A stretch of DNA of 64,000 bases, from contig CAWEWF010000014.1 of NCBI GenBank assembly GCA_963812605.1, positions 128,001-192,000 on the forward strand, in the 5' to 3' direction. Shown piece after piece: positions 1,325-7,837 of this stretch. The DNA is from an uncultured Verrucomicrobiae bacterium (GTDB taxonomy: Bacteria > Verrucomicrobiota > Verrucomicrobiia > Palsa-1439). Each line of letters begins with the position of its first letter. Position 1 is the first letter of the stretch. Both the position numbers and the translations under genes were made by a program. The notes beneath the pieces are model-generated. The model was not told where the DNA came from. It worked only from the letters and a program-made list of their open reading frames with translations, and did no database searches.

Positions 1325-1637
1325 ATGGCCCACGTTGTGGCTGAACCCTGTATCGGTTGCAAATTCACCGATTGCGTGGAGGTTTGTCCGGTCAACTGTT
1401 TCTACGAGGTTGAGGATCGGTTGTACATCCATCCCGACGAATGCATCGACTGCACTGCCTGTGTTCCGGTTTGCCCGGTGGAGGCGATTTTCACCGAGAG
1501 CGACCTGCCGGCAAAGTGGAACAGCTTCATTGCCGAGAACCGCGACAAAGTGGCCGGTGCCACCAACATCACCGTCAAGAAAGAGCCGCTTGGGCAAGGA
1601 CAAGCCCGAGTGCAAGCCAGGCGCACGCAAACCCTAG
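1325..1637 (+). CDS. fdxA: 7Fe (FdxA-type) ferredoxin; probable 1-nt insertion near 1592, true C-terminus likely [14 protein letters not shown]
   Basis: [15 protein letters not shown] and [12 protein letters not shown] motifs; GAAGGAG RBS. Removing one G of the GGG at 1592-1594 gives a stop at 1635-1637 abutting the convergent gene. Confidence 0.88.
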
Positions 1638-3244
1638 TCATGTGCGGCTTCGGGGCCGCTCTTGGGTGTCGTTGTGGCGGCGCCGCCTTCGCCTGATTGC
1701 TCGACGAGTTGGTAGATCGGCAGGTAGCGGTAATATACTTCGAGAATCAAGGCCCCCAATGCGGTGGAGTAGGCGGGTGTGTTGGCGAGGTCTTTGCCTT
1801 CGATCTTGCTGTTGGGGGGTGGCATCCAGCGTCCGTCGTCCTGCTGGTTCCTGACCATCGTGTCGCGGATTTGGCCATTCCAATACGACCAGTAGAAACT
1901 GCCGCCCTGGAACATGGCTTGCGTCATGTAGTACCAACCGTACATCACGTAATCGCCCTGGCTCTTGCCCCAGTCAACTTTCTGTTCACGCAAGTAGTCC
2001 AGCGCACCCTTGAGGCGCGGGTCCTTGCCGTTACCGAGGAACTGCTGGCATAAAACGCCGACGGCGGTCATGGACGGCCAACGCTCCGGCTTTTGGTACC
2101 CGAAGCCGGGGTTCTTGGTGTCGTACATGTTCCAGAGATATTGCGTGGCCTTGTCGAAAACGGGCTGGGGAATCTCAATGCCCGCCGCCCGGGCCGACTT
2201 CAAGGCCATGATCATCCATCCCGTAACCGATACATCGGAGTCGTTGGACAAAGGGTGATAGCGCCACCCGCCAACATCCTGCGGTTTCTCTTTCGCCGCC
2301 GCTTGTCCCCTGAAGATCGCTTGCAACGCCCGATCCAGCGGCTCGCGCAGCGCCGGCGACTGCGTCATGGCGTAGCCTTCCGAAAGCGCCAGCACAACCA
2401 GGCCCTGCGAATAGCCATACGCAATGTCGTTTTCCTGGGAGACGCCGATGATCAGCCCGTTACTGTCGACATGATGCACCAGGTACTCCAATCCTTTGCT
2501 GACCGCCTGGCCGAACTCGGTTGAATCGGGCGTTTCACCGTGCCCGAGAAATGCCAGCGTCGCCAACGCCGCGCCTGCCGGTGCGCTGGAGCCGCATTTC
2601 CACGAGCCGTCCTGCTCCTGGTTGGCCTTTAACCAGCGGAGGGCCGCGATAACGGCCTTTTCGGTCTCGGCGCTGCCCTGGAATTTATTCAGGTTAATCG
2701 CGCGCTGTGGGCCCATGCGTGCCCCGAGAATGCCGCCGCCGGGACCCTTGATTCCGGTGGTGCCGATCTTCGTCTCACCCATCCCGCTCATCGGCGTCAG
2801 GCCCACGCCGCTCGGGCCACCGACGGGCCGCGCAATCGCCGTGGCTACGTCACTCATCACGCCAATGACTTCGGCGGCATTGTCCTGGTTGGCCTGTGCG
2901 GACGGAGTCAAGATGTGGGCCTCGTAGGTTTCCGGTGTGCCACCGGCGGTGGGCACGCCGCCCGCGCCTTTCCCGGGCGTTCCGCCGCCACCGCCAACCG
3001 TCGGGCCTTTGTACTCGAAATTTCGATACACCGCGTTTGGGTCGTCGGGTTCCTTGTCAGACGCGGGTGGGGGCAGGGGCGCGCCTTCAAAGGAGGCAAC
3101 GATTTTCGGGAGGATGGCCACGATTTTGATCGATCCGAGAACAGCCAGCAATGCCACATGGAACAGCAGCGCGATGATGAAGTAGCGCATGAGGCGCGTT
3201 TGCGCCATCAACCACGCCAGGAATTTGCTGGTGATAACTTTCAT
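1634..3244 (-). CDS. Membrane-anchored prenyltransferase/squalene-oxidase-repeat (alpha/alpha barrel) protein with a TonB/TolA-like N-terminal anchor and Pro/Gly-rich linker
   Basis: TM segment [20 protein letters not shown] and [13 protein letters not shown] linker; QW-like repeats QEQDGSW, GGWRY, QQDDGRW; C-terminal LEVYYRYLP. Confidence 0.8.
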
Positions 3245-3247
3245 GGC

Positions 3248-6659: not shown

Positions 6660-7066
6660 TTTTCCAACGTCGCGAACGTAACATCGGCAATGCCCGCCCG
6701 GGAACAGACCTTCATGAAAGCGCTGAGGTCCTTATAGGTCATTTCGCGGCTGCCGCGCAGGATCAGCGAGTTCAGGCCCGGGTCCGCCGCCTTCATGCGG
6801 CGCAACAAATCCGGCAAGTCATCGACCTTGTAGGGATGACCGCCCACCGTTACGTCGTCGGAGGAAAACATATTGACGATAATCTGGTTGGGCGTCTTCT
6901 TGAACTCATCGCCGGAGACGGACTGCGGCAGTTTGATATTGGCTTCCCGCTCCATTTCCGCGAACCGCGAGAAGCTCATGTAAAAAATCAGCAGGATGAC
7001 GATCGTGTCGATCATCGGGATGATCTCGACCCGTCCGCGTTTGATCTTGCGACGCTTGACCTTCAT
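6656..7066 (-). CDS. exbD: ExbD/TolR family biopolymer transport protein (copy 1)
   Basis: EIIPMIDTIVILLIFYM TM with the conserved Asp; LILRGSREMTYKDL motif. Confidence 0.9.
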   Translation of the reverse strand: MKVKRRKIKRGRVEIIPMIDTIVILLIFYMSFSRFAEMEREANIKLPQSVSGDEFKKTPNQIIVNMFSSDDVTVGGHPYKVDDLPDLLRRMKAADPGLNSLILRGSREMTYKDLSAFMKVCSRAGIADVTFATLEK

Positions 7067-7075
7067 CGGCCGGGC

Positions 7076-7837
7076 TTAATGCTGGATGGAGGATTTGAGG
7101 ATGACCATCAATTCGGTGAGGCCCCGTTCCATATCCATAAGGATGGCCTCCTTTTTGCCGGTGAAATAGTTGTAGGCGAAAAGCGCGGGAATAGCGACGG
7201 CCAGACCGGTTGCGGTATTGATCAAGGCCTCGGAAATGCCGCCGGCCAACTTGGTCGGATCACTCATCCCGATGGCGGCCACGATGCTGAACGACTTGAT
7301 CATGCCGACCGTCGTACCCAGCAGCCCGAGGAGCGGACACAGGGTCACCATGGAATCGAGTTGGGGCAGGTACTTTTCCATGGAGATCATTTCCTTGGTC
7401 ACCGCGCCCTCCGCAAGACCTTCAACCTGCTCGGGCGCGTAGCCATCGCGGGCGGCCTGGATGGTGGTGCGGATCACCCGGCCCGCGACGCCGGGGGCGT
7501 GTTCGATCGCGGTGAGCGCTTCCGAGAGTGTGCCCGCCTGTTTGATCTTCAGGATCAACTCCTCGGCGTTGCCTGTCGCGCCGCGATAATACATGAACCG
7601 TTCGATGAGAAGCGTCACAGTCAGGATTGAGCAAGCGACGAGCACGAAGAAGACATAAGGAGGGGTCTTCGCGACCTCCCAGATCATTGCAAAAGCGCTT
7701 TTCTGGACGACAGGAGTCGCGGCGGCGGTCGCTTCCTGGGCCTGGGCCAGAAAGGCCTGGCCGATGAAAACAACAGCGGACGCTGTCAAAAAAACGCGGA
7801 ACGCAATTCGGGATGCTCTAGTAGATAGTACCGGCAT
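7076..7837 (-). CDS. exbB: MotA/TolQ/ExbB proton channel family protein
   Basis: PLLGLLGTTVGMIKSF and GGISEALINTATGLAVAIPA with the conserved Thr residues. Confidence 0.93.
   Translation of the reverse strand: MPVLSTRASRIAFRVFLTASAVVFIGQAFLAQAQEATAAATPVVQKSAFAMIWEVAKTPPYVFFVLVACSILTVTLLIERFMYYRGATGNAEELILKIKQAGTLSEALTAIEHAPGVAGRVIRTTIQAARDGYAPEQVEGLAEGAVTKEMISMEKYLPQLDSMVTLCPLLGLLGTTVGMIKSFSIVAAIGMSDPTKLAGGISEALINTATGLAVAIPALFAYNYFTGKKEAILMDMERGLTELMVILKSSIQH

Follow-up and report, generated by a model that had tools for sequence, protein, structure and literature searches.

A tightly packed group of five genes on the minus strand of contig CAWEWF010000014.1 (assembly GCA_963812605.1) probably encodes a dedicated machine of the Ton/Tol type, driven by the proton motive force (PMF), in which a 536-residue protein would transmit force much as TonB and TolA do, with a toroid as its head. 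The window analyzed is the 64,000-nucleotide stretch at positions 128,001-192,000 of this contig, and all coordinates below are window positions. The five genes lie within 1634-7837 and encode an ExbB/TolQ-like protein, two ExbD/TolR paralogues (ExbD1 and ExbD2), a large tetratricopeptide repeat (TPR) protein and the 536-residue protein (Table 1). The 536-residue protein combines an anchor, a linker and a head, which is the three-part plan of TonB, TolA and the von Willebrand A (vWA) transducers compared below, and this plan supports its assignment as a transducer. A preliminary description of the same DNA had already placed a non-canonical transducer in the position usually taken by TonB. That proposal gains from the conserved His helix of the protein, from gene order across the phylum and from the separate transducers found at the other motors of the genome, but the linkage to motor genes on which it also drew is not universal.

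The structure of the 536-residue protein was predicted with AlphaFold2 from a 55-row alignment (mean predicted local distance difference test score, pLDDT, 74.3; predicted template modelling score 0.66), and residue conservation was read from an alignment of 55 close homologues sharing 50-81% identity. The N-terminal end of the model consists of a short amphipathic helix followed by a transmembrane (TM) helix at residues 17-38 (pLDDT block means 84-95). This TM helix carries the motif A-x3-H-x6-L, in which Ala25 and His29 are invariant in all 55 close homologues. As described in PMC12215075, TonB and TolA share the SHLS motif S-x3-H-x6-L-x3-S, whose Ser and His contact TM1 of ExbB or TolQ in cryo-electron microscopy structures. 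The anchor had initially been described as an SxxxH motif; its His is confirmed, whereas the expected Ser is Ala25. An Ala at the first SHLS position nevertheless appears to be normal for this lineage, because the genome's own TolA homologue, located within a canonical Tol-Pal cluster, likewise reads A-x3-H. When either residue is allowed, (S/A)-x3-H is present in 34 of 47 toroid open reading frames (ORFs) from 40 other genomes of the phylum (32 with S-x3-H and two with A-x3-H). Since the hydrophobic stretch spans some 25 residues, with Arg17 and Arg20 ahead of it and conserved sequence behind it, the N-terminal helix is probably an uncleaved N-in anchor.

Immediately past the membrane, the segment at residues 46-56 shows a Pro-flanked I-x-A-x-F pattern in which Ala50 and Phe52 are kept in at least 90% of the alignment rows. 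The corresponding place in TonB is occupied by the D-box, which is captured as a strand by the ExbD dimer (PMC10907165). The strict Escherichia coli D-box pattern, taken from the same source, was found in 22 of 98 anchored, more distant ORFs, 20 of which have it exactly 22 residues past the His, while the background in the same proteins is 0.13 occurrences per 48-residue window. A complex prediction for the periplasmic parts of ExbD1 and ExbD2 together with transducer residues 34-82, made with alignments supplied and without controls, gave a score of 0.00 and counts neither way. The linker (residues 41-177) has pLDDT values below 50 and includes 16 Pro and 27 Gly among its 137 residues, in agreement with the long Pro/Gly-rich linker proposed earlier. 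A search with the N-terminal 180 residues against 1.84 billion representatives returned 34 proteins at E <= 1e-3, and the full-length matches measured 457-556 residues, the size of the toroid family.

The head (residues 178-516) is all-helical and confidently predicted (pLDDT >90). In a structure search against representatives, the top match was squalene-hopene cyclase (SHC; 1gsz, Z 25.9, root-mean-square deviation 3.0, 283 of 619 residues aligned), followed by 8paj (a 342-residue chain, Z 25.8), then by drimenyl diphosphate synthase (Z 24.6), oxidosqualene cyclase (24.0) and an exported Yersinia protein lacking an assigned function (23.6). The cyclase matches 1gsz, 8paj and 8zg0 (the last with Z 24.6) superimposed at about 3 A over 275-288 residues. 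With Z 21-23, GH76 mannanases and sugar epimerases came within 3-4 Z units of the cyclases, while thioester domains reached approximately 19 (CD109 Z 19.1, C3 Z 18.8) and the beta subunit of geranylgeranyltransferase type I (GGTase-I) reached 18.3. Foldseek was concordant with these results (best E 5e-7). Among the folds first suggested for comparison, namely SHC, the farnesyltransferase beta subunit and the alpha-2-macroglobulin thioester domain, SHC ranked first. In the model, the head is one (alpha/alpha)6 toroid nearest to the cyclase/prenyltransferase branch, a placement supported by three QW-type motifs at 209, 322 and 467; it is equally a generic alpha/alpha toroid for which cyclases score best and glycoside hydrolases and epimerases follow closely. 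The alpha/alpha barrel with QW-type repeats that had been described from the letters alone is thus recovered in the predicted fold. It is also important to note that this assignment rests on a predicted structure, with the cyclase family models remaining under their cut-offs (PF13243, 19.2 bits versus 26.1; TIGR01507, 21.9 versus 431).

No D-x-D-D motif occurs anywhere in the 536-residue protein, and no C-x-E-Q thioester motif was found in the toroid. Pfam searches of the protein gave no match to TonB_C, TonB_2, TolA domain III or a vWA domain. Because the protein lacks DxDD, contains a single toroid and scores under the Pfam cut-offs, the head is unlikely to be a terpene cyclase. The HMMER alignment to SHC covers the QW repeats only. 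The stretch 'NDSDVSVT', which had been matched to the catalytic position, is placed by HMMER at SHC residues 299-324 with a negative score, and its equivalence to DxDD could not be verified; the identification of Asp337 with the catalytic Asp of SHC by sequence was rejected as unverifiable for the same reason. Among 127 toroid domains from across the Planctomycetes-Verrucomicrobia-Chlamydiae (PVC) bacteria, Asp337, Ser339, Tyr383, Tyr435, Trp455 and Thr494 are invariant and Glu289 is present in 126, and these residues appear to mark a conserved pocket.

The motor encoded upstream keeps several conserved membrane residues. The ExbB/TolQ-like protein retains the Thr of 'LLGTT' and of 'NTATG' (TM2 and TM3) as well as the TM3 Pro, and Asp20 is invariant in the alignments of ExbD1 (50 rows) and ExbD2 (51 rows), as the preliminary description had claimed for the threonines and for the Asp of both ExbDs. 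The two ExbDs are approximately 36% identical. For the ExbB/TolQ-like gene, the best NCBIfam model is tolQ (90 bits), followed by exbB (59 bits), both far under cut-off; across the motor genes, tolQ and tolR rank above exbB and exbD, all as non-equivalog matches. An attempt to match ExbD1 and ExbD2 to the ExbD pairs of distant cassettes as orthologues was dropped, as the scores fail to separate them. Along the operon, 5' to 3', the first two genes are 9 nt apart, the next two junctions are overlaps (ATGA and ATGA-type) and the last two genes are 3 nt apart, and both the ORF coordinates and the Pfam matches uphold the tight exbB-exbD-exbD-TPR-536-residue arrangement. A profile search of the window's contig detected no match to TonB_C, a TonB-dependent transporter (TBDT) barrel, OmpA/Pal or PD40/TolB, consistent with the absences noted earlier for the window.

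The source genome (4.17 Mb in 15 contigs, 90% complete) contains six MotA/ExbB genes and three TonB_C matches by profile search of its contigs, and each of the other five motors is adjoined by its own candidate transducer. One belongs to a cluster of TolQ, TolR, TolA (TonB_2), TolB and Pal followed by tatA and tatC (L041, 5844-9970, contig C2). Two motors are accompanied by TonB_C proteins; at the first of these loci there is a full-length TBDT gene, and at the second a short TBDT-barrel match together with a gene for an iron-dependent repressor. A further motor adjoins a 387-residue protein with S-x3-H and a Pro-rich linker. The remaining locus (L039, 4466-8957, contig C5) encodes a TPR protein of 843 residues, ExbB, a single ExbD and a 272-residue TM protein that matches nothing in Pfam, lacks a His in its helix and may be another non-canonical motor partner. 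Since the other motors each have their own candidate transducer, the toroid protein is left as the only candidate partner of the window's motor, and it appears to be the only transducer-like gene at that locus. The preliminary description had considered that a canonical TonB from elsewhere might serve this ExbB-ExbD pair; the TolA and TonB proteins of the genome each lie beside a motor of their own.

Homologues of the 536-residue protein are widespread. Of 8000 candidates scored, 377 matched at E <= 1e-3, and the best 120 of these matches are at least 50% identical and derive mostly from Verrucomicrobia metagenome-assembled genomes. Four close relatives (L011-L014) have the same gene order as the window, and a fifth (L015), whose contig starts inside the TPR gene, continues with two tandem toroid genes. 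Within the phylum, a toroid homologue at E <= 1e-10 was present in 166 of 401 sampled genomes. Gene order was then compared in the 40 genomes ranked first by E-value, at one locus (the best) per genome; 37 of these loci were informative and three were not. The exbB-exbD-exbD genes lie directly upstream of the toroid gene on the same strand in 29 of the 37 informative loci, and two more are cut by the contig end at an adjacent exbD. The usual cassette in these genomes runs TPR (~940 residues), TPR (~265 residues), exbB, exbD, exbD and one or two toroid genes, and tandem heads beside one motor were seen in seven loci (L015, L060, L061, L064, L068, L069 and L074). The gene immediately after the toroid gene is mutL in five of eight annotated distant cassettes (L048, L053, L055, L060 and L083), a conserved neighbour whose functional link, if any, is not obvious. 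Besides the 34 (S/A)-x3-H anchors mentioned above, the 47 toroid ORFs include four, all motor-linked, with Asn in place of His, a substitution (His20Asn) that is reportedly active in TonB; another four have a TM helix without His, two unlinked ORFs have a signal-peptide-like start, and three are truncated or artefacts.

The toroid is also found in other architectures. In 14 loci, mostly labelled Planctomycetota or Phycisphaerae, exbB and exbD are followed by one frame of 1140-1600 codons ending in a toroid, a large version of the motor-linked protein (L117, L119, L130-L133, L138, L141, which is labelled Anaerolineales, L147, L152, L153, L156, L160 and L161). In Kiritimatiellia and Victivallales (L022, 7125-12573; L035, 6664-11711), four proteins (769-1044 residues) that follow TPR, ExbB and ExbD genes have TM helices without His; three of them combine PD40 with a toroid, the fourth (L035, 8970-11711) has a PD40 match only, and L035 has a separate 446-residue toroid protein just downstream. 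Toroids that lie behind PD40 propellers, or in proteins of 1200-1600 residues, beside exbB-exbD in these two groups and in Planctomycetota hint that the motor clients may be a modular family. Taken with the large exbB-exbD-linked frames and the motor-free loci described next, the PD40 fusions indicate that the toroid serves these motors repeatedly as a client, in several different architectures, and also occurs alone.

Several observations weigh against the transducer assignment. The first Ser of the SHLS motif is Ala25 and the last is displaced to S38; the strict D-box pattern is absent from the window protein and was found in just three of the 55 rows of its family; and TM1 of ExbB has the Ser, but Val replaces the His-contacting Trp of E. 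coli ExbB/TolQ. The TM1 Ser/Trp network was dropped as a discriminator, as the Trp occurs only in the genome's TolQ and is absent even from its TonB-linked ExbBs. In a quick FastTree tree, in which branch support was not considered, the ExbB of the window's lineage falls outside the clade of 29 other toroid-linked ExbBs. The TPR gene is interrupted in this assembly, and the invariant Asp-x-Ser, Glu and Tyr set of the 127 toroid domains would suit an enzyme too. The remaining points concern linkage. Six of the 37 informative loci have no motor, and the Pfam search detected none within about 7 kb in eight further loci (L016-L021 and L023 from Planctomycetota and L024, labelled 'uncultured bacterium'), nor did tblastn with the window's proteins, a weaker test than Pfam, in L025-L034 and L036. 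Chthoniobacterales loci with S-x3-H likewise have no motor within 7 kb, and the Planctomycetota homologues mostly carry (S/A)-x3-H yet have no exbBD nearby, which weighs against a simple picture. In one of these unlinked Planctomycetota loci, a gene for a 666-residue TonB_C protein lies 2.3 kb upstream of the toroid gene (L023, 2914-4914), with no ExbB or ExbD gene nearby. Lastly, six genomes of the window's class (G084, G087, G348, G162, G390 and G081; loci L162-L166 and L168) contain between one and three toroid genes, which are in tandem when there are several; their anchors lack His, and neither exbB nor exbD occurs within 10 kb. These His-less, motor-free paralogues look like a motor-independent branch of the family. 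The proposed linkage to exbBD therefore holds for most informative loci of the phylum, but not for many homologues with the same anchor in Planctomycetota and Chthoniobacterales.

On balance, the transducer assignment still appears the most probable, and its operation can be outlined by homology with Ton and Tol. A TolQ/ExbB-like pentamer and an ExbD1/ExbD2 heterodimer would form the stator, for which motif, position and synteny point to the 536-residue protein as the force transducer. Its N-terminal A-x3-H-x6-L helix would dock on the outside of ExbB as in TonB and TolA, and the Pro-flanked strand just past the membrane could be held by the periplasmic domains of the ExbDs. The 137-residue Pro/Gly linker may carry the toroid across the periplasm toward the peptidoglycan or outer membrane, where the pocket formed by Asp337, Ser339, Glu289 and several Tyr and Trp residues would serve as a binding head whose partner could be a glycan, a lipid or a stretch of protein. 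In the periplasm, the large CpoB-like TPR protein would act as a scaffold, perhaps one that clamps the linker at its conserved linear motifs.

There are several potential alternatives. The strongest, although still unlikely, makes the 536-residue protein a periplasmic enzyme or binding protein that is tethered to the membrane, acts on a glycan or isoprenoid lipid and is co-expressed with the motor but not driven by it, the motor working through the TPR protein or through a distant TonB or TolA. The invariant Asp, Ser, Tyr and Thr residues and the near-invariant Glu of the pocket would fit such a protein, as would the Z scores of glycoside hydrolases and sugar epimerases close to the 24-26 of the cyclases, the weak Pec_lyase matches seen in Planctomycetota homologues and the many homologues without a motor. 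However, an enzyme would have no need of an invariant TolA-like His helix or a disordered tether of this length, its place directly after exbD would not have to be kept in most loci, and the other motors of the genome all have an adjoining transducer candidate of their own.

It is very unlikely that the protein is instead a structural tether or stator regulator, which would hold the motor at an envelope site or gate it, as a plug or as a peptidoglycan or outer-membrane anchor, and pass no work to a substrate. The anchor-linker-head plan fits this role too, and the paired, non-identical ExbDs and large TPR proteins are suggestive of a fixed assembly. However, Pfam identified no peptidoglycan-binding or lipoprotein signature in the head, and the tandem heads found beside single motors better fit exchangeable clients than a fixed tether.

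The last alternative concerns this strain only, namely that the TPR gene is a pseudogene and the operon no longer functions here. The TPR protein had been described as one open gene of about 990 residues, but in this assembly two +1 frameshifts, near 4064-4069 and 3730-3738, break it into three frames (3964-6300, 3723-4118 and 3248-3730). The relatives L013 and L014 have single frames (1032 and 1034 codons from stop to stop) that are collinear with the whole gene, whose product matches TIGR02795 (tol_pal_ybgF, E 4e-67) in eight stretches as well as many further TPR models of Pfam and NCBIfam. Decay would also fit a GH31 gene in the same window (21738-24464, plus strand), which is broken into at least seven successive ORFs in differing frames that match successive Pfam parts (Gal_mutarotas_2, Glyco_hydro_31_2nd, _3rd and DUF5110) and which would be either a pseudogene or an area of clustered indel errors. 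However, both TPR frameshifts fall within short runs (AAA and CC) typical of assembly indels, each TPR piece is 54-64% identical to L013 with no internal stop, and the four other operon genes are intact and 77-93% identical to those of relatives. Breaks also affect other genes of the genome: an ExbD and an amidohydrolase are each in two pieces and some biosynthetic genes are truncated, while the SecA and polynucleotide phosphorylase (PNPase) genes are intact. The split ExbD belongs to the TonB_C/ExbB/TBDT locus with the iron-dependent repressor (L042, 8897-9329, contig C5), where its two ORFs cover profile positions 3-70 and 63-125 and the neighbouring amidohydrolase is likewise split, which fits frequent assembly indels. 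Given the short runs at the shifts, the other split genes and the intact SecA and PNPase, gene decay appears a less likely cause than assembly indels, and a decaying operon is highly doubtful.

Upstream, the operon is flanked by pnp and rpsO; downstream lie a ferredoxin gene on the other strand and then nth-like and bcp-like genes on the minus strand. Elsewhere in the window, at 30278-32827 on the plus strand, three overlapping long ORFs in differing frames, the last with Calx-beta and HZS_alpha-like domains, may represent a large gene broken by frameshifts.

Table 1. Features of the putative motor operon and its toroid-headed protein (window positions)
Feature	Position	Strand	Evidence
ExbB/TolQ-like proton-channel subunit, 253 residues, signal-like N-terminal extension	7076..7837	-	PF01618, E 1e-31
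ExbD/TolR paralogue 1 (ExbD1), 136 residues	6656..7066	-	PF02472, E 5e-18
ExbD/TolR paralogue 2 (ExbD2), 142 residues; start overlaps exbD1 stop (ATGA)	6231..6659	-	PF02472, E 1e-18
Periplasmic TPR protein, ~990 codons, CpoB/YbgF-like repeats, signal peptide	3248..6234	-	TIGR02795, TPR models
Putative force transducer, 536 residues: TM anchor, disordered linker, alpha/alpha toroid	1634..3244	-	ORF, profile search, AlphaFold2, structure search
TM helix, residues 17-38, A25-x3-H29-x6-L36; His29 codon 3158-3160	3131..3196	-	AlphaFold2, alignment
Pro-flanked strand-prone segment, residues 46-56 (begins P46), at the place of the TonB D-box	3077..3109	-	Alignment
Disordered Pro/Gly-rich linker, residues 41-177, three conserved linear motifs	2714..3124	-	pLDDT <50, consensus
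Single (alpha/alpha)6 toroid, residues 178-516, three QW repeats	1697..2713	-	pLDDT >90, structure search

If the transducer assignment is correct, the presence of the toroid head in so many genomes of the phylum would make the ExbBD/TolQR motor a general power socket for which the tools can be exchanged. The question can be tested by mutation, with the His helix, both ExbDs and the head as obvious sites, and the ligand of the head could expose a new envelope process in abundant PVC bacteria of soil, peat and gut. A more specific and quite improbable extension is that toroid transducers are the working end of a PVC outer-membrane uptake or surface-handling system independent of TBDTs, in which the motor would pull a head gripping a glycan or lipid-linked polymer into an enlarged periplasm; alternatively, the head may grip a pilus or outer-membrane protein that carries the polymer. 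Such a system would explain the 'selfish' polysaccharide accumulation of Verrucomicrobia and Planctomycetes, and duplicated or exchanged heads would set its substrate range. A link to the Akkermansia mucin utilisation locus MUL1, which might hold TPR and motor genes, could not be confirmed and was not used; published descriptions give mul1A (amuc_0544) as a gene for mucin transport and liken MUL1 to a Sus system.

Compared to known systems, the 536-residue protein belongs neither to TonB/TolA by domain definition nor to the class II terpene cyclases by catalytic definition; it would work like the former and is predicted to fold like the latter. It shares with TonB and TolA a probable N-in TM helix with x3-His-x6-Leu, a Pro-rich linker of the periplasm-spanning kind, a strand-prone Pro-flanked segment just past the membrane and a gene adjoining exbB/tolQ and exbD/tolR. 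It differs from them in lacking TonB_C, TonB_2 and TolA domain III, in having Ala for the first Ser of the motif, in having two different ExbDs and in having no TBDT, TolB or Pal in its neighbourhood. The class II cyclases, including SHC (1gsz, 8paj and 8zg0), provide its best fold matches, and its QW repeats match their profile. However, two toroids (beta and gamma) enclose the active site in those enzymes, compared to one toroid here, and the 536-residue protein lacks DxDD, is tethered in the periplasm by prediction and scores under the Pfam and NCBIfam cut-offs. The likeness to protein prenyltransferase beta subunits such as that of GGTase-I is one of fold only, and the thioester domains of alpha-2-macroglobulin and C3 have the CGEQ motif that is absent here and are weaker fold matches. 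The TPR protein resembles CpoB/YbgF in its TIGR02795 stretches and its tolQ/tolR-like operon; however, CpoB/YbgF is about 260 residues long, compared to about 990 here, and the TPR protein has no TolB or Pal partner nearby.

To our knowledge, Ton and Tol were for a long time the only known routes by which a side-docking transducer carries inner-membrane energy to the outer envelope. A literature search found no paper on a toroid-headed partner of ExbBD or TolQR, and none among the papers listed pairs 'squalene oxidase repeat' with ExbD or TolR. The nearest published kind comprises motor-driven force transducers with vWA heads, which occur in PVC and other bacteria and are encoded in TPR-tolQ-tolR-tolR cassettes (Williams-Jones et al. 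2025, Mol Biol Evol, PMC12204202). The main text of that paper contains neither 'cyclase' nor 'prenyltransferase', while its supplementary tables and figures may list other heads. The two kinds share a TM helix with a conserved His, a linker and a cassette of TPR, tolQ-like and two tolR-like genes, and the TPR-TPR-exbB-exbD-exbD-toroid order of the phylum cassettes is that of the published vWA cassette. They differ in the head, a toroid here and a vWA domain there, and in the position of the TPR gene, which lies between exbD2 and the transducer gene in the window's lineage and upstream of tolQ in the published cassettes. The operon described here thus appears to be a real, conserved variant of the machine type proposed in 2025. 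With vWA proteins proposed there as a third type of client (PMC12204202), the toroid would be a second head other than that of TonB to use this anchor and cassette, and such an architecture suggests that a kind of envelope force machine has so far escaped study.

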